From assembly GCA_965246885.1 (NCBI GenBank), contig OZ251992.1, positions 2,432,001 through 2,496,000 of the forward strand: a stretch of DNA of 64,000 nucleotides, read 5' to 3'. Source of the stretch: Abditibacterium sp. (GTDB taxonomy: Bacteria; Armatimonadota; Abditibacteriia; Abditibacteriales; Abditibacteriaceae). The position numbers were made by a program. Positions 42,001 through 54,000 of this stretch are shown piece by piece. Every line of letters starts with the position of its first letter. Position 1 is the stretch's first letter.

Positions 42001-45000
42001 ACCATGTAAAGCGGCGAGAACGACAGTTGCGGAAACAATACGCCGCCCTCCACCACAAGGCGCGCCAGCACGATATTGAGCAACACGAACGAGCCGAACA
42101 GCCCAACCGTCAGCCAAGGCGACAACCCCGCAAAACTGCACCACGCACACAACCCTACGAAGCACGCCGCCCAGCCCACCACCACAAAGCGCGCCGAGAA
42201 CGGTTCGTTGAGGGTTGTAGCCGCCGAAGCGCGGCGCGGGTTGAGCGCGGCGAGGAAGGTGTTCTTGAGTTGCTCGCGCGCACCCCACAAGAGGAGCGCG
42301 CCCATCCCCAACCACGCGCCCAGCGACTGAAAGGCAAGGAAGTGCGGGCGTTGCCCGTAGGGTTCTTTGGGCAGAGCGTCGGGCACAAAGCCCATCTGCG
42401 CGGCGGCCACCAGTTGCACTTGCACGAGCAGAAAGCTCGTCCAAAACGAGAACGACATCTCGCGCGTGAGCAGATACGCCACGCCGACGGCACCGAAATA
42501 CCACTCAATGTTTAGACTGCCAATGGCGCTGAGCGGCGCTTCGGTAAAGTTCAACACCAACTGGTTGCCCTGAAACCCCGTCAGAACCGGGAACTGGGGA
42601 AAGTAGTTGTTGAGGCCGCGCAGAAGGTGGAACGCCGCCGCAACGCCAAAGCCCAGCCACATCAAGCGGTTTGCCCAGAACTCGCGTGCCGGTGGGCTTT
42701 GCCCCGCGCCAGTCTCGACCATTTGGAGCGGCAACTGCACGAGCGGAAACGCCAGCGCTTCCGACTCGATCCACTGCTTGCGAAAGAGCAGGGCCGTAAA
42801 GAACAGCAACCCGTAGAGCAAGAGGCAAAACCCGCTCCACGCGAGGAGCATCACCATCCACGCATGCCAAGGAATTTGCGATGGGGATACCTGCCCGGTG
42901 AAGAAGCCGTCCACCACCTCGCGCTGGAAGGTGTGCCCGTCCCAACCCGGCGCCCACCACGAGGGAATGTGCCGGTAAAAGGTGTCGGCCCAATGATTCT
43001 CGCGCGTCGAAAAGTAGAACAGCGTCGGCCCCGCGCTTAAGAAGAAGTTCTCCGTTCCCGGCGTCGAAACCAGCGCCGCGAGGAGCGTCATCGCGTACAC
43101 CGTCAGTAGCTCGCCGCGCGACAAGGGCCGCGCCAAACGGGAGTTGAGCGCGCGAAGCGGCACGTTCACGCCCAGAACAAGCGCCATTAGGATGAACACC
43201 GCGCCAAACGGCAGGTGCACCCCGCCCAAAAAGTGCACGTTGGCGAAAGTTTCGATCCACGCGTTGAGCGCCGCTAACCCCACCGACAGCCCCAACCCAA
43301 GCGCCACCGCCCGCCCCGACACGGGCGTGCGCCCCGGTTCTTGGGGCGATGCGGTGGGGGGCGCAGCTTCGGGAGCGAGTATTTCGGGGAGCGGGATAGA
43401 GCGGGGCATAACGTGGGTGAGCGGTTGCTTTGAGTTAGGCGGTCGTCGGGCGCCAAGGCGCAATATGGGCATCACGGGCATCGGCTTTCCGTTCCCATGC
43501 GCTGTAGTCAAGCGGCGCTCCAATTTCCGGCAGATGGGAAACACCGGTGAGGTGCGCTTCGATGGCAGTGATGCGCGCTTCCGGCAAGCATTCCGGCCCC
43601 AGTTCAAGCCGTATCTCCCGTGCTTCGAGGGCCGGAAAGACGTGCCATTTCTGCGCGCCAATCGTGTGGCCTGACGCTATCTCCCGCCCATCTGCGAGCA
43701 CGCGATAGCCCATGACGCGCTGGCCATATTCCAAGTGCTCGCGCAAAACGAGATGGTCGAAGCGCGCCGCTTCACTCAAGCGCAGGGTGGCGCCTTGGGC
43801 ATCCGGGACAAAGTCACCCGCGAGCGGCGAGGCGAAGCGGCGCCTAATTTCGTCGGCGAGGGTGCGTAGCGCGGCTTCGTCGTGCGGGTCAATGCGGCCT
43901 TGGCGGTTCGGCCCGACGTTGAGCAACAAGTTCGCGCCCAACCCGACCGAGAGATAATAGATGCCCAACAGGTGCTCCGGCGTTTTGAGCGTCGGCAAGT
44001 CGTCGTCCTGCCAGAACCAGTGCTGACGGATGGCGACATCACATTCGGGCGGCAGGTAACGTAGCTCCTCCAGTTGCTCGCTTTCGGATGTAAACGCCGA
44101 AATGTCGGTGGCGGCGACGGCATACAAACAGGGGTCAGCCGCGACGCCGTCCTCGTTGCCCGCCCAACGGATGGTGGGAGAAGGCCCCATGTTAAAGACC
44201 ATCGCGCCCGGTTGGTGGGCGCGCACCACATCCATGACGGCGTCCCAATTGTAGTCGCGGCCTTCGCTGCCGCCGCCATCGAACCATAGCTCGAAAAGCT
44301 CGCCGTAGCGGGTGCAAAGCTCGGTCAGTTGCGCGCAGTAGAAGCGGTCGTAAGCCGCTCCATCCGAGTAGACGGCGCAGTTCCGATCCCAAGGCGACAG
44401 ATACAACCCGAAGTGCAAGCCCCTGTCCCGACAAGCCTTGGCTACCTCGCCCACGATGTCTATTTGGCCGGGCGAGTTGCGAACACTGTAGGGTGTGGTG
44501 TCCGTCGGCCATAAGCAAAAACCATCGCCGTGCTTGGCGGTAAGAACGAGATACTTCGCGCCCACACTCAAAGCAATGTCCACCCACTGGTGGGGGTCGA
44601 AGTCGGTGGGCGCGAAGGTTTCGGGCGGCCACTGGCCCGCGCTCCACTCGCGGTTGTGGAAGGTGTTGATTCCAAAGTGGCAGAACAAGCCAAATTGCGC
44701 GCGTTGCCAGCGCAGTTGAGCCTCGGCTGGAATGGGGATAGGGGACATCGCGTCGGGTAAGGGTCTCACTTGACGGCTTCGAGCGTCACATCATCGAACC
44801 ACGCGGTGCCGGTCGTGCCTTTGCGCAGGTAGAGGGCGAGGCGGTTGTTACCCGCGTCGGAACGCACGGTGAAGGTGCTTTCAACCTTCGTCCAGTCGAA
44901 AGTGCCCGCCAAGGGCTTGGCGTATTCGCCGCGTAGCCAATCGCCGCCCTTGGAGAAGCTTTCCATATAAAGCGCCGCGCCCTCGTCGCCGACGCTTCCT

Positions 45001-51000: not shown

Positions 51001-54000
51001 GGCGCAGGCCTCTCGCTGGACGGCGCAGGTGTTTCTTCGCGTGGCGCAGGTAATTCTTCGGAAGAATCACCTAAGGAACTATCTGATGCATGGGCGCGGC
51101 GGTGGTTTGGCGGATGACGAGGGAGACGGGAAGGGTCAGATTGGTTTGGCGTTCAACTTTGCCCGACAGCGTGTCGAGAAGCAGATGGGCGGCGGCTTTT
51201 CCTATTTCCTTGAGGGGCAGTTGCACCGTCGAAAGGAAGTTCTCGTTCATCTCGGCATATTGCAGCGACAAGGGACGCGTGTCGTCGAAGCCAATAAGGG
51301 ACAAATCGTCCGGCACGCGCAAGCCTTGCTCCAACAGCGCGCGGCGCAGCAACACGGCGTGGGAATCGTTGCGCGTCAGAACTGCCGAAAAACGGGGCGG
51401 GCCGCAAAAGTAGCGCGCCACAACGCCGCGCAGGGAGTCGGTGAGGGAAGCGTTGGGTTCGATCAGATGGACAGTCACTGTTTCCTCGAAGTCCACGCCC
51501 GCTTCGCGGCACGCTTCGCGGTAGCCCGCCAAGCGCTCGTTCAGGTGATACGGGGGAACGTTGTGACCGGAGATGAACAAGACGCGGCGGTGCCCCAACT
51601 CCAGCAGGTGCCGTAGAGCGATCCGTCCGCCGTCGCGCTCGTCGGCCACCACCGAGGAGCAACCCGCGAGGGGAGCCATGACCGAGATGGTCGGGCAATG
51701 GGAGATGTTGCCCTTGCTTTCGATTTTGCGTAGCAGTTGCTCGCCCTGATTTTGCCGGCAGAGCATCAACACGCCATCTACGTCGCCGCGCACGATGGCA
51801 AGGGGCAGTTCGCCTTCCCCATCGTCTTCCAACGCGCTGACGATAAGGTCATAGTTTTCCCGGCGCAGTTCGGTCTGGATGCCTCGAAAAAGGAAGGAGT
51901 AGTAAAAGTCATCCAAGAACCCTTGGGGCAAGAAAAGGACGACGAGGTGGTTGACGACCGTGCGCCCCGTTTTGCGCGCCGACAACTGGCGGGCCGACAG
52001 GTTGAGGGTGTGATCGTAGCCCATCTCGTCGGCGACGCGGCGGATTTGCAAGGTGGTGGCCTCCCCCACCCGCTTCGAGCCAATCAGCGCCCGATACACG
52101 GTGGACTTATGAACGTTGCACTTATCGGCAATGTCCTGAAGGGTAACGGCTTCCATAGAAAGCAGTGTGACCGACTGACTTCCTCGGCGGCTTCCAACCA
52201 CAAGGAAGAGTAGTGGTGAATTCGCCCCTCCACCCAAACAACTTGCGGTTTAGCGCGCCGCAGTTGATGGCACAAGCCGACGACGCCCCCGACGAAGACG
52301 CTGCTTTCCAAATCCCGTACATCGGGCCTCAACCAGCCTTTCCCGTCCGGTGGGGTCGAAGAACTGCCGGGGTCGGGTGGCGAGCCTGCGGATCGGGGGA
52401 AGTGCAATCGGTGCGGCGTGAAAGGGGGGGGTGGGACATGGCAAAGCATGCCCACCCAACGCGCTCCTGCTTCGCTCACACTATGGGTTTCGAGCGCACA
52501 AAGAGGTTGCAACCATGTGCGGTTTGAGAAATCTCGATGAAGACACTTTTGCCCCAGCCCCAGTCATTCCAAGGCCACCCAGACGAATTTTTGTTGTTGG
52601 CGCAAACTTCCCTTGCCGCAACGGGCGAGGCGGCGTCAGTCGCGGAATTTCTGGCTGCTACGCTGCGACGCGCCACCGGGTTTGAACTGCCCATTGGCGA
52701 AGCCGGAGAAATCGTTTTAACGCTCAGTCCGTCTTTGGAATCGTTGGGCGGCGAAGGCTATCGGCTTGAGGTGACACCTCAGGGCGTCCATATCGCGGCG
52801 GCGGAGCGGGCGGGGCTGTTTCATGGCGTGCAAAGCCTATTGCAACTGTTGCCATCGGCAATTTATGCTTCCCACGTGCAAGAAATAGATTGGCGCGTGC
52901 CCTGCGTGAAAATCGAGGACGCACCGCGTTTTGGCTGGCGCGGTTTGATGCTTGATTGCGGGCGGCGCTTTTTTCCGCTCGATGACCTCAAACGGCTCCT
53001 CGACTTGATGGCGCTACACAAACTAAACGTCTTCCACTGGCATCTGGTGGAAGATGCCGGTTGGCGGCTCGAAATCAAGAAATACCCGCGTTTGACCGAA
53101 GTCGGAGCATGGCGCCGCGAATCGCCGTTGCCGCGCCAGCCGACCCAAGGCGACGGCGTGCCCTACGGCGGATTTTATACCCAAGACGAGGCACGCGAAC
53201 TGGTGGCTTATGCGGCGGCGCGCCACATCACAATCGTGCCGGAAATCGAGATGCCGGGGCACACCTTGTCGTCGCTCGCGGCTTATCCGCAGTTTTCCTG
53301 CACCGGCGGGCCGTTCGAGCCAATTGTGCGTTGGGGCTTGCAATCGGACATCTATTGCGCCGGGAATGACGCGACATTTGGCTTTATCGAGGCCGTCTTA
53401 GAGGAAGTGTTGGCGATTTTCCCCTCGCAGTTCATCCACGTCGGCGGCGATGAAGCGCCCAAAGACCAGTGGGAAAAATGCCCGAAATGCCAGCAGCGTA
53501 TCCAAGACGAAAACCTCAAAGACGAGGGCGAACTGCAAAGCTACTTCCTACGGCGCATCGAGAAATATCTGGATGGCAAAGGGCGGCGGCTCATCGGCTG
53601 GGACGAGATTCTGGAAGGCGGTCTGGCGCCCCACGCGACGGTGATGAGTTGGCGCGGCGAAGAAGGTGGCATTGCGGCGGCTTCGTTGGGGCACGATGTC
53701 GTGATGACGCCGCAGCAATTCTGCTATTTCGACGCTTATCAATCCCTCCTCACCGACGGCGAGCCGGAAGGCTTCCAACTGCTGCCTCTCGAAAAAACGT
53801 GGGGCTACGAGCCAATCCCCGCCGCATTGCCGGTCGAGAAACAGCATCACGTTTTGGGCGTGCAAGGCTGTATGTGGGGCGAGTATGCGTTCGACTGGGA
53901 CAAAGTCGAGTTTCAAGTCTTCCCCCGTTTGTGCGCCTTGGCCGAAGCGGGATGGTCGCCGCCGCAACCTCCCGATTGGCCAGAGTTTAAGGAGCGATTG

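Follow-up and report, generated by a model that had tools for sequence, protein, structure and literature searches.

Gene content and control elements of the locus

The window, by which we mean the whole 64,000-nucleotide stretch of the Abditibacterium sp. genome analyzed here, contains a LacI-family regulator, a pilin-like gene, a run of carbohydrate-related genes and a gene for a polytopic membrane protein, all on the same strand; a GH20 gene is transcribed divergently from them, and a second pilin module with an AraC-type regulator lies beyond it (Table 1). The start of the LacI gene at 52156 (MEAVTLQD...) is our own gene call, the ORF being open up to 52237, and its matches to NCBIfam equivalogs all fall under their cut-offs.

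Table 1. Features of the LacI-pilin-enzyme module and of the adjoining second module (positions along the window)
Feature	Position	Strand	Evidence
DUF6785+DUF6784 polytopic membrane protein	41337..43409	-	455 and 106.8 bits
GH29 alpha-L-fucosidase	43435..44769	-	Alpha_L_fucos 155.7 bits; no signal peptide
Exported carbohydrate-binding protein, 187 aa	44766..45329	-	CBM_4_9 35.8 bits
Exported protein, 685 aa (712 aa from upstream TTG)	45342..47399	-	Signal-peptide-like N-terminus; GH158 9oro E 7.6e-4
Exported enzyme candidate, 722 aa: TIM-barrel region, CBM-like middle, PA14	47493..49661	-	PA14 87.4 bits
GC-rich 12-bp hairpin, then UUUG, directly 3' of pilin stop codon	49775..49802	-	
Pilin-like gene (DUF1559/SBP_bac_10, H-X9-DG-H), 262 aa	49819..50607	-	N_methyl 39.1 bits; SBP_bac_10/DUF1559 58.6 bits
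Operator-like pair of perfect palindromes, GTTGCGCAAC	50654-50663 and 50672-50681 (pair 50653..50681)		12-nt form TGTTGCGCAACA at 50653-50664
LacI-family regulator, periplasmic-binding-protein-type sugar sensor	51071..52156	-	PF00356 32.5 bits; PF13377 (Peripla_BP_3) 107.9 bits; PF00532 60.3 bits
GH20 beta-hexosaminidase, divergently transcribed	52537..54084	+	384.6 bits; no signal peptide
AraC-type regulator, second pilin module	54094..54894	-	HTH_18 73.6 bits
PhyH-family dioxygenase, first gene of second module	54994..55911	+	72.5 bits
Second pilin-like gene (DUF1559, H-X9-DG)	55975..56721	+	SBP_bac_10 60.4 bits; TIGR04294 26 bits vs cut-off 19
LamG + DUF642 + GDSL esterase protein, 739 aa, behind second pilin-like gene	56796..59015	+	

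The 722-aa protein has a hydrophobic, signal-peptide-like N-terminus, and the similarity of its TIM-barrel region to GH42/GH158 is weak (GH158 9oro, E 0.007; Glyco_hydro_42, 20.4 bits against a cut-off of 21). A Pfam search gave no family for its 685-712-aa neighbor, the N-terminal part of which is CBM-like, while its C-terminal region resembles the catalytic part of the 722-aa protein in shared motifs spotted by eye. Both are candidate exported clan-GH-A-like enzymes. The GH29 enzyme is probably cytoplasmic, since it lacks a signal peptide. The AlphaFold2 model of the DUF6785/6784 protein (pLDDT 90.5, pTM 0.91) matches the OPT/Yellow-Stripe fold (7wsr: E 2.7e-8, TMq 0.61, TMt 0.69; next unrelated match, E 0.12), and the protein is a candidate oligosaccharide importer.

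The palindrome pair, which we infer to be operator-like, sits ~50-75 nt ahead of the pilin start codon. Its 10-mer has 13 copies in the genome, two of them together only in the window locus; the pair lies between genes, and so does at least one single copy (C1:3179358). The hairpin region behind the pilin gene (49755-49822) folds with a dG of -33.3 kcal/mol (z -4.0; 0 of 200 shuffles as good). It was not reported by a consensus terminator scan and looks like a terminator, an attenuator or an mRNA-stabilizing element.

The pilin-like family and the filament machinery

The window's pilin-like protein has a basic leader of 19 residues with G-1/F+1/E+5, and its H-X9-DG-H motif is formed by H210, D220, G221 and H222. 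E+5, which in type IV pilins is associated with filament assembly, is kept in all 61 pilin-like proteins that our own HMM of the N-terminal 62 residues detects in the genome, and H-X9-DG in 58 of them. The initial annotation was right about a large family of paralogues, but its count of 64 should be lowered to 61, or to 62 by matches to PF07596. It had further described an almost invariant N-terminus joined to unrelated heads. The first part stands, with a mean pairwise identity among the paralogues of 68.6% over the N-terminal 62 residues; the second does not, for the heads, at a mean of 21%, share invariant residues (C55, C112-P113, P102, K105, H210, D220, G221, H222 and K224 in a subfamily of 65 sequences), and a search restricted to the head retrieves 81 homologues at E<=1e-3 and 28-44% identity, the window's own protein aside. 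Identity at four-fold sites of the N-terminus is 44% vs the 35% expected from composition, which indicates conservation by purifying selection rather than recent copying and fits many heads using one machine.

The pilin/pseudopilin architecture proposed earlier is borne out by the AlphaFold2 model of the window's copy (pLDDT 85.4, pTM 0.81), in which a helix (residues 22-72) is followed by a beta-sheet head. In structure comparison with VIA-align, type IV pilins or pseudopilins fill 19 of the top 20 rows, the best being PilA4 (6xxd: Z 5.8, rmsd 3.3, 121 aligned); the modeled resemblance to pilins is only middling. Foldseek returned nothing for the model at E<=1e-3, and the structure searches found neither a lectin nor an SBP fold in the head.

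A domain search of the genome found no TonB-receptor Plug domain, and its loci are accordingly not SusC/D-based, in line with the initial annotation. Matches to SBP_bac_8 (2) and BPD_transp_1 (14) are also few. LpxC is nonetheless present, together with six secretins and eight T2SSE matches in seven ORFs, two of which, adjacent to each other, are read from match length and position as PilB-like and PilT-like; a T2SSF platform protein and an A24 prepilin peptidase are encoded just downstream of them. Genome-wide, only one gene outside the pilin-like family has a prepilin-type N-terminus, and no other candidate for a major pilin was found.

We favor, tentatively and at a little under an even chance, the reading that each DUF1559/H-X9-DG protein captures a specific ligand as a subunit of a type IV filament machine common to all copies and serving nutrient uptake. 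Because the prepilin N-terminus is strictly conserved, one prepilin peptidase and one set of ATPases, platform protein and secretins could process and assemble any copy, the ligand of each copy being set by its own variable head. Conceivably, the proteins might never polymerize: once the leader is cleaved, their N-terminal helix would keep them in the cytoplasmic membrane in a bindosome-like fashion, where they would supply secondary transporters as periplasmic solute-binding proteins and have no role in outer-membrane crossing. A precedent exists in archaeal sugar-binding proteins that carry pilin-type signal peptides; moreover, classical binding proteins are few (two SBP_bac_8 matches), copies adjoin importers, and riboswitches and repressors control them as they do binding proteins. 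A Tuwongella study places N_methyl+SBP_bac_10 proteins in detergent-soluble membrane fractions (PMC8567305). We nonetheless regard this as quite unlikely: the head has a pilin fold and not that of a periplasmic binding protein, the filament-assembly residue E+5 is kept in every copy, the strong purifying selection on ~60 N-terminal residues goes beyond the needs of a membrane anchor, the ATPases and secretins would be left without a major pilin, and the passage of B12 or oligosaccharides over the outer membrane would go unexplained in a genome lacking Plug domains.

Coupling to regulators, enzymes and riboswitches

Of the 25 PF13377 (Peripla_BP_3) regulators in the genome, 15 are directly followed in the same orientation by a pilin-like gene, and another four have one at a distance of two genes. 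When positions were randomized 20,000 times, such pairs averaged 0.49 and never exceeded 4, in agreement with the initial annotation that this adjacency lies far above chance. Pilin and regulator genes abut in 13 of these 15 pairs. The window's own gap of 514 nt is atypical, the other 14 measuring 26-266 nt, of which 13 are <=138 nt. A strong hairpin lies 3' of the pilin stop codon in 46 of the 61 genes vs 49% of 400 random genes. This abutment and the hairpin after the stop codon link the pilin gene with the regulator more closely than with the hydrolases, and the genetic unit looks like a regulator-pilin pair, a hairpin and then the enzymes.

Of the 44 pilin regions, 16 have a Pfam-recognized GH/PL/CE4/CBM/lectin gene within three genes of a copy, and three more a BNR/sortilin propeller. 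A rival possibility is that each private pilin-like protein acts as a pseudopilin dedicated to its cargo, or as a docking subunit carried on a pilus, by which the exported enzymes of the locus are recruited to a type II secretion-like machine or held on the filament. By a crude heuristic, 18 of 43 first non-pilin genes downstream encode an exported-looking protein vs a background of 13.8% (8 of 15 in the regulator loci), an enrichment that an export role fits equally well. The downstream proteins are also large (median 410 aa vs a genome median of 296), many being GH/PL enzymes; the secretins and the seven T2SSE-type ATPase genes would serve such a role, and the N-terminus is GspG-like, with fold matches to EpsG (Z 4.5) and PulG (Z 3.6). 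Yet the GspG model TIGR01710 reaches 33.7 bits, below its cut-off of 88.85, we know of no cargo-specific pseudopilin, and the hairpin parts the regulator-abutting pilin gene from the enzymes. Copies also stand in operons with a transporter and only cytoplasmic enzymes, as in the fructan operon described below, where the pilin-like gene precedes the importer, and in a single DUF485 - pilin-like gene - SSF symporter arrangement, which speaks for uptake. On balance, an export or display adaptor appears unlikely.

Riboswitches nearly always govern the synthesis or transport of their own ligand. The genome has one cobalamin and one TPP riboswitch in all, and each lies directly 5' of a pilin-like gene. 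The TPP-controlled copy is monocistronic by appearance; the lack of an exported partner in its transcription unit speaks against an export adaptor. In a phylum sample of 21 genomes, 11 of the 30 cobalamin riboswitch loci and 3 of the 13 for TPP have a pilin-like N-terminus <=400 nt downstream. These riboswitches, the SSF symporter beside one copy and the roughly half of the 44 regions with neither a glycan gene nor a sugar regulator within three genes argue that the family is not glycan-specific, which alters the earlier reading built on glycan-degradation operons.

The same observations bear on the idea that the heads are adhesins only, which fix the cell to insoluble polymers, as the cellulose-binding pilins described from rumen bacteria do, and play no part in import. 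Copies are co-located with enzymes for such polymers (GH5, GH9, GH10, GH26, GH44), type IV pili are reported among the extracellular proteins of a cellulolytic Ruminococcus (PMC3672088), and glycan-binding minor pilins are reported from Streptococcus sanguinis (PMC9934059). Pure adhesion would account neither for control by B12 and TPP riboswitches nor for copies in soluble-sugar operons (fructan, sucrose) or beside a small-solute symporter, and we consider it very unlikely.

Several results run against the uptake reading itself, among them the middling structural match to pilins, the search of the head that turned up no lectin or SBP fold, and the loose tie to the OPT-fold importer given below. 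About half of the 44 regions contain neither a glycan gene nor a sugar regulator, riboswitch or transporter within three genes, many adjoining housekeeping or unknown genes, and a Mantel test found no co-divergence of regulator and head sequences (r 0.01, p 0.44).

A possible route of capture and its recurrence in relatives

On the uptake reading, each copy would be switched on by a sensor of its ligand or of a breakdown product: glycans where the regulator is LacI/GntR-type or AraC, B12 and thiamine where it is a riboswitch. Ligand binding by the heads, polymerization, the direction of transport and the substrate are what we infer for the following scheme. In the window, the LacI repressor would free the operator pair ahead of the pilin gene. 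A fucose- or hexosamine-bearing glycan would then be cut extracellularly by the exported clan-GH-A-like enzymes with the CBM protein, and the private pilin head, displayed on a pilus or a short pseudopilus, would bind the polymer or its oligosaccharides. The ligand might be passed over the outer membrane without TonB-dependent receptors, possibly via a secretin by retraction, to be imported by the OPT-fold DUF6785/6784 protein; GH29 and GH20 would complete its degradation in the cytoplasm, and a product would act back on LacI. The importer is no fixed partner of pilin-like genes, since only 2 of its 6 genomic copies lie within five genes of one and it is present in 3 of 77 loci from relatives.

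A parallel is offered by a report on planctomycetes, in which dextran binds pili-like fibers (PMC5394234). Our literature search found no paper on pilin-like genes coupled to sugar regulators or riboswitches, and the present analysis suggests an undescribed pilus-based capture of food in a soil-type bacterium devoid of classical outer-membrane nutrient receptors.

The recurrent arrangement put forward in the initial annotation, in which a sugar regulator is followed by a private pilin-like gene and then by glycan enzymes, is real: it is seen in the window and across the genome, and again in relatives that bear the names Abditibacterium, Abditibacteriota and Armatimonadota. Among the 77 loci of named relatives, a pilin-like gene follows 27 of 41 regulator ORF pieces, one split regulator being counted twice; in more distant members of the phylum it follows 4 of 9 regulators (G013), 1 of 1 (G014), 1 of 2 (G017), 0 of 2 (G019) and 0 of 6 (G020). 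In a complete Abditibacteriota genome, one locus (L090) encodes LacI, a pilin-like protein, DUF6785/6784, GH32, GH32+RicinB and fructokinase; its pilin-like and OPT-fold genes occupy the slot expected for the transporter of a fructan operon.

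Coupling of sugar regulators, pilin-like genes and glycan enzymes

The initial annotation had proposed that the glycan operons of this genome combine a sugar regulator, a private pilin-like gene and glycoside hydrolases, and the succession of regulator, pilin-like gene and glycan gene proves to be real on a genome-wide scale. Profile searches across the genome (3.555 Mb in two contigs, 92.7% complete, 3071 genes by our own calls) returned 62 matches to the DUF1559/SBP_bac_10 domain (PF07596) and 25 to the Peripla_BP_3 domain of the regulators (PF13377); a search with an HMM that was built from the first 62 residues of 19 seed copies of the pilin-like proteins found 61 genes. 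A pilin-like gene is the next one downstream on the same strand after 15 of the 25 regulators and lies two genes away after four more, as against a mean of 0.49 and a maximum of 4 regulator–pilin neighbours in 20,000 runs of random placement.

The coupling extends to the enzymes. Taking each pilin-like gene with three genes on either side, we obtained 44 regions with 280 non-pilin proteins, a Pfam scan of which identified a recognized GH, PL, CE4, CBM or lectin gene in 16 regions and BNR/sortilin propellers in three more. The families represented are GH1, GH2, GH5, GH9, GH10, GH16, GH20, GH26, GH44, GH71, GH75 and GH81, together with alpha-amylase/CBM48, PL14 and pectate-lyase-like folds. Among the 15 loci headed by a regulator, the first gene that is not pilin-like codes for a recognized glycan enzyme (seven loci), a BNR propeller (two), a PhyH dioxygenase (two) or a 660–946-aa protein lacking any Pfam family (four).

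Other families also recur in these neighborhoods. PhyH-type dioxygenases have 21 matches in this genome versus none in 14 control genomes, and the window holds two of them, that of the second module and another at 59088–59972. By our own reading of the region scans, eight of the 21 have a pilin-like gene no more than three genes away, compared with an expectation of about two; here they may act in substrate oxidation or pilin modification. AraC, divergent PhyH and pilin-like genes are combined at three places: the window and loci L026 and L044 of the same genome. Xylose-isomerase-like TIM-barrel genes (AP_endonuc_2) are found beside pilin-like genes five times (L005, L011 and, with three of them, L017), and proteins with the copper-amine-oxidase N-terminal domain (Cu_amine_oxidN1) near them three times (L017, L032 and L033).

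The window itself presents two such modules, the first of them among nine minus-strand genes counted from 41337 to 52237.

Features of the two pilin-like modules in the window and the evidence for each
Feature	Position	Strand	Evidence
Protein with sub-cut-off DUF455 match	39822-41237		Pfam
DUF6785+DUF6784 membrane protein	41337-43409	-	Pfam
GH29 fucosidase	43435-44769	-	Pfam
187-aa CBM_4_9 protein	44766-45329	-	Pfam
685-aa protein without Pfam family	45342-47399	-	Pfam scan
722-aa protein with PA14	47493-49661	-	Pfam
Prepilin-like protein	49819-50607	-	N_methyl 39.1 bits; SBP_bac_10/DUF1559 58.6 bits
LacI-family regulator	51071-52156	-	LacI HTH PF00356 32.5 bits (cut-off 27); Peripla_BP_3 PF13377 107.9; PF00532 60.3
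GH20 hexosaminidase, divergent to the minus-strand locus	52537-54084	+	Pfam
AraC, second module	54094-54894	-	Pfam
PhyH, second module	54994-55911	+	Pfam
Second pilin-like gene	55975-56721	+	PF07596 60.4 bits
LamG+DUF642+GDSL protein, second module	56796-59015	+	Pfam

On profile scores the regulator is a member of the LacI family, with an N-terminal LacI-type HTH and a PBP type I effector domain. Neither the 722-aa nor the 685-aa protein gave a Pfam catalytic family above cut-off; they are weakly similar to the GH158 structure 9oro (E 0.007 and 7.6e-4, respectively, over 100–160 residues). Judged by a hydrophobicity heuristic, signal-peptide-like N-termini are present in the 722-aa, 685-aa and CBM proteins and absent in the GH29 and GH20 enzymes. 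The Pfam scans detected no TonB-dependent SusC-like (Plug) gene in the window locus and no SBP, BPD_transp_1 or ABC_tran match among the 13 window proteins scanned.

In 13 of the 15 regulator–pilin pairs, only 26–138 nt (leader codons included) separate the stop codon of the regulator from the FTLIE motif of the pilin-like protein; the two genes abut, and their co-transcription is probable. Consistent with this, perfect palindromes of at least 10 nt occur in just two of the 15 gaps, most of these being too short for a promoter. The window locus is exceptional in its regulator–pilin distance of 514 nt. Here, approximately 50–75 nt 5' of the pilin start codon, the perfect palindrome GTTGCGCAAC stands in two copies 18 nt apart (50654 and 50672); it is found 13 times in the genome, with paired copies at this locus only. 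Nearby, the approximately 100 nt directly 3' of the LacI stop codon (50960–51060) contain two copies of CCTGCGCCACGCGAAGAAA and four of its core CCTGCGCC; GAAAGACGTCTTTC, a palindrome of 14 nt, is located at about 50893–50912.

A further shared feature is a hairpin behind the pilin-like gene: the best 40-nt hairpin has a median of -22.8 kcal/mol, as opposed to -14.9 for 400 random genes (Mann-Whitney p 7e-9), and one of -15 kcal/mol or below follows 46 of the 61 pilin-like genes versus 49% of the random genes. The gap to the next same-strand gene has a median of 81 nt after pilin-like genes, against 48. In the window, the hairpin at 49775–49802 after the pilin gene has a 12-bp stem (-33.3 kcal/mol, z -4.0); a scan of 49500–52600 for consensus promoters and terminators missed it and yielded no promoter-like site. 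Among the sequencing runs listed for 43400–52300, two of DNA type, from a single study, cover this stretch and none of RNA does. Regulators and pilin heads show no co-divergence (Mantel r 0.01, p 0.44; nearest neighbours agree in two of 15).

The association of pilin-like genes with ligand sensors is not confined to sugar repressors. The sole cobalamin riboswitch of the genome (3011030–3011139 on contig C1) lies directly 5' of the pilin-like ORF C1:3011244-3012122, the two together spanning 2709–3801 of locus L040; likewise, the pilin-like ORF C1:851451-852410 is directly preceded by the sole TPP riboswitch (C1:852282-852399, minus strand; C1:851451-852399 corresponds to 2819–3767 of L017), both riboswitches being confirmed at the Rfam gathering score. 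Across the 21 genomes of the phylum sample, a pilin-like N-terminus follows within 400 nt in 11 of 30 cobalamin and three of 13 TPP riboswitch loci. Downstream of the B12-controlled copy are genes for a 409–426-aa protein, whose N-terminus is lipoprotein-like and which has a membrane helix at its C-terminus, and then for an S9-like lipoprotein. The TPP-controlled copy has an opposite-strand gene behind it and appears monocistronic.

This last copy bears on an alternative in which the pilin-like proteins export or display the products of neighbouring enzyme genes. The first non-pilin gene downstream is exported-looking in 18 of 43 cases versus a background of 13.8%, as such a role would suggest; however, the monocistronic TPP copy is left unexplained by it, as are operons made up of transporters and cytoplasmic enzymes alone, and we hold this explanation to be unlikely.

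Signature, fold and divergence of the pilin-like proteins

The window copy begins with a class III signal peptide, comprising a short basic leader, Gly-1, Phe+1 and Glu+5 (N_methyl 39.1 against 21.2 bits; TIGR02532 36 against 16.3). Glu+5 is present in all 61 family copies, preceded at position -1 by Ala in 41, Gly in 19 and another residue in one. Both window copies score above the PF07596 gathering threshold (58.6 and 60.4 against 23.3 bits) through an alignment that spans the first 59–66 profile positions only. By pattern, H-X9-DG is found in 58 of the 61 copies and H-X9-DGH in 57; the corresponding model, TIGR04294, recognizes the second window copy (26 bits against a cut-off of 19) and gives no row at E<=0.001 for the first, yet that protein has H210 followed by D220-G221-H222. 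Within the subfamily of the window pilin, C55, P102, K105, C112-P113, H210, D220, G221, H222 and K224 are invariant and E183 is conserved at 90% or more, a set of residues that would suit a disulfide together with a metal or ligand site.

An AlphaFold2 model of the window pilin, computed with 65 sequences (pLDDT 85.4, pTM 0.81), places a helix of residues 22–72 on a beta-sheet head. With this model, Foldseek retrieved nothing from the PDB at E<=1e-3, and its weak rows (E>=0.16) have type IV pilins as the eight best. In the exhaustive VIA-align comparison, pilins and pseudopilins make up 19 of the top 20 rows, with PilA4 (6xxd) as the best (Z 5.8, rmsd 3.3, 121 aligned), and with EpsG at Z 4.5 and PulG at Z 3.6. 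As these Z values are middling, the assignment of the fold rests on their consistency and on the sequence signature. At the sequence level, a PDB search matches the N-terminal helix alone to pilins, and the same helix is all that aligns with the GspG model TIGR01710, where 33.7 and 32.9 bits fall below the equivalog cut-off of 88.85; indeed, the window copies stay under the NCBIfam cut-offs of the GspG, PilA and ComGC models alike.

Among the 61 paralogues, mean identity is 68.6% over the N-terminal 62 residues and 21% over the heads. The invariance of the N-terminus cannot be put down to gene conversion or recent duplication: the four-fold degenerate sites of identical residues show 44% identity versus the 35% expected from composition. 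Hence, the N-terminus is kept by selection.

Filament machinery, importers and the probable function

The genome encodes LpxC. No TonB receptor Plug domain was found in it at E<=0.01 (whole genome, two contigs, 92.7% complete; three of 14 control genomes were positive), and ABC-type components number 14 BPD_transp_1 and two SBP_bac_8 matches. Of a filament machine, the prepilin peptidase, assembly ATPase, platform protein and secretin are encoded, with the A24_N_bact and T2SSF domains in locus L034. T2SSE-type ATPase matches occur in seven ORFs; two adjacent ones (C1:2398241 and C1:2400236), which from match length and position we read as PilB-like and PilT-like, lie just upstream of the T2SSF and A24 prepilin peptidase genes. 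The filament-machine cluster formed by L034 (C1:2401358-2414710) and C1:2398241-2401051 comprises these two ATPases, T2SSF, NIF3 and the A24 peptidase, along with a pair of long, divergent pilin-like genes, a GspJ/PilW-like prepilin gene and the gene of a 1246-aa protein lacking any Pfam family. Of the six secretin genes in the 3.55-Mb genome, three stand in tandem (C1:2112275-2116275) and the others at 137102, 390547 and 1138787; each of the six is at least seven genes away from any pilin-like gene. Beyond the 61 copies, the genome has a single further prepilin-type N-terminus, within the machinery cluster; thus, candidates for a major filament subunit come from the pilin-like family alone.

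A candidate importer belongs to the window locus. The model of the DUF6785/DUF6784 protein (pLDDT 90.5) matches barley Yellow Stripe 1 (YS1, 7wsr) in Foldseek at E 2.7e-8 (prob 1.00, TMq 0.61, TMt 0.69, 12% identity), the next unrelated entry being at E 0.12, and this match makes it a candidate OPT-fold importer. It is akin to the OPT/Yellow-Stripe proteins in its whole-protein fold rather than by sequence membership: Pfam gave DUF6785 and DUF6784 alone, with no OPT match at E<=0.001, and the PDB sequence search returned no meaningful match at E<=10. Judging from its context, it may transport an oligosaccharide instead of a peptide or metal chelate. A search of the literature on DUF6785/DUF6784 returned no paper. 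The protein has six genomic copies; a fixed pair of pilin and DUF6785 is ruled out, such pairs being seen for two of the six copies and in three of 77 loci from relatives. In L090, from a complete Abditibacteriota genome, the genes for a LacI regulator, a pilin-like protein, a DUF6785/DUF6784 protein, GH32, GH32+RicinB and a PfkB kinase lie in this order; on its gene content, this is a complete fructan operon, with the pilin-like and OPT-fold genes at the expected position of the transporter. In L028 (C1:1986220-1995790), a DUF485 gene and the gene of an SSF-family symporter flank an inserted pilin-like gene; DUF485 and SSF are arranged in this way in acetate-permease operons (yjcH-actP).

We favour, as a real if tentative possibility, a role of the pilin-like proteins in capture and uptake, because they are tied to three kinds of ligand sensors, because they are placed beside importers in a genome missing TonB-dependent receptors, and because filament machines are present with no other major pilin. 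A function as pure adhesins we regard as very improbable beside these ties to ligand sensors and importers. Going a step further, we propose, with considerably more doubt, that a retractile type IV filament might take the place of TonB-dependent receptors in carrying nutrients across the outer membrane of Abditibacteria and, by extension, of the DUF1559-rich Planctomycetota, Lentisphaerota and Armatimonadota. Its subunits would be some 60 interchangeable receptor pilins sharing one common polymerization helix, each induced by the sensor of its own ligand: a LacI, GntR or AraC regulator where this is a glycan, a riboswitch where it is B12 or thiamine.

Several known systems provide points of comparison. 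With type IV pilins and T2SS pseudopilins (PilA, PilE, GspG/EpsG/PulG, ComGC), the proteins share the class III signal peptide, Glu+5, the long helix and the helix-on-sheet head, and the peptidase, ATPases, platform and secretins of those systems are encoded here; they differ in the larger head (129–265 residues) with its conserved Cys pair and H-X9-DG-H, in their 61 copies, in the absence of a classical small major pilin and in the proposed wiring of each copy to a nutrient sensor. Competence pili are, to our knowledge, the one established case of a type IV filament pulling a macromolecule inward via a secretin by retraction. Competence pili and pseudopili would thus exemplify the mechanism proposed here; however, their cargo is DNA and their pilins are one or few, in contrast to the dozens of heads, each for a different nutrient, in our proposal. 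The archaeal bindosome (Sulfolobus) consists of sugar-binding proteins with pilin-type signal peptides, ordinary binding-protein folds and ABC transporters. A comparable, non-polymerised binding protein would likewise use a prepilin-type signal and peptidase for nutrient binding, but the predicted pilin fold of the head and loci devoid of ABC transporters set the present proteins apart, and we deem this alternative decidedly unlikely.

The loci also parallel the SusC/SusD loci of Bacteroidota in their substrate-specific regulator, putative private surface capture protein, exported endo-enzymes, candidate importer, intracellular exo-enzymes and many repeats per genome. They differ from them in lacking both a TonB-dependent SusC (0 Plug) and SusD, in having a pilin-like protein at the capture position, in the OPT fold of the candidate inner-membrane importer of the window, and in their cytoplasmic regulators of LacI, GntR or AraC types. 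If the uptake reading is true, they would represent a third design of polysaccharide utilization locus beside the SusC/D and ABC types, and would change how glycan degraders are recognized in soil, wetland, gut and algal-surface metagenomes. Import by a retractile filament, if true, would do with pili what SusC/D and BtuB do elsewhere, and would bear on the uptake of oligosaccharides and vitamins by outer-membrane bacteria with few or no TonB-dependent receptors.

A precedent for binding fibres comes from planctomycetes: in passages of Boedeker et al. 2017 (PMC5394234), dextran is bound by pili-like fibres of crateriform structures and the polysaccharide is later intracellular, with the uptake route put forward as speculation and the fibre subunits not identified. 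Polysaccharide-binding fibres are thus seen in a DUF1559-rich phylum and might be linked to DUF1559; were filament-based import true, their subunits would thereby be named. A 2025 review (PMC12673574) calls the players unknown and, by a search for these terms, at no point names pilin or DUF1559.

Phyletic spread of the family and its loci

The present proteins resemble the DUF1559/SBP_bac_10 family of Planctomycetota and relatives in their PF07596 scores above cut-off, N_methyl leader and large paralogous expansion. The expansion of this family is reportedly described by Mahajan et al. 2020 (Mol Biol Evol). Passages of the published accounts give 68 DUF1559 paralogues for Planctopirus limnophila (PMC10632474) and, for Tuwongella, 91 proteins with both domains, of which 25 were detected in membrane fractions (PMC8567305). 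With these 68–91 published copies per planctomycete genome and the 61 found here, DUF1559/H-X9-DG is among the largest protein families with no assigned function. As far as the text passages, titles and abstracts of the retrieved papers go, the literature presents a large paralogous family, gives no function and contains no tie to sugar regulators, hydrolases or riboswitches; a 2009 paper, in the passage concerned, relies on the Pfam entry in treating the family as solute-binding proteins (PMC2754498). Since members stand behind sugar repressors and B12 or TPP riboswitches, their ligands can be predicted locus by locus, and the family thus becomes a set of single-gene experiments.

In passages of two of these papers the family is restricted to Planctomycetes or the PVC group; in contrast, we find it equally expanded in the Abditibacterium/Armatimonadota lineage, with PF07596 present in all 21 sampled phylum genomes (our own included) at 4 to 74 matches each, about 73 candidates having been scored per genome. 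Related public records bear the titles Abditibacterium, Abditibacteriota, Abditibacteriia, Armatimonadota and Capsulimonadaceae. A clear orthologue of the window pilin was not found in other genomes, the best whole-protein identity being 48–51% and that of head-only homologues 28–44%.

The arrangement of the loci recurs in relatives. Around relatives of the window pilin, 77 loci were compared; these contain 136 pilin-like N-termini as well as 41 pieces of regulator ORFs (one frameshifted regulator counted twice), and immediately behind 27 of the pieces stands a pilin-like gene. For five genomes at greater distance, the regulators with a pilin-like gene immediately behind them number 4/9, 1/1, 1/2, 0/2 and 0/6. 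Of 35 downstream ORFs picked from relatives' loci, 31 in 18 loci were scanned, two duplicates and two regulators having been dropped, and 13 of the 18 loci proved to encode GH, PL, CE or CBM domains. The families are GH31 (three times), amylase/CBM48 (twice), GH76 with GH3, PL11, GH39-like, GH32, GDSL with heparinase, GDSL, GH10 and alginate lyase. Finally, locus L141, on the Abditibacteriaceae MAG contig JAFAZH010000049.1, packs 15 pilin-like N-termini into 20.6 kb as two opposed tandem arrays.
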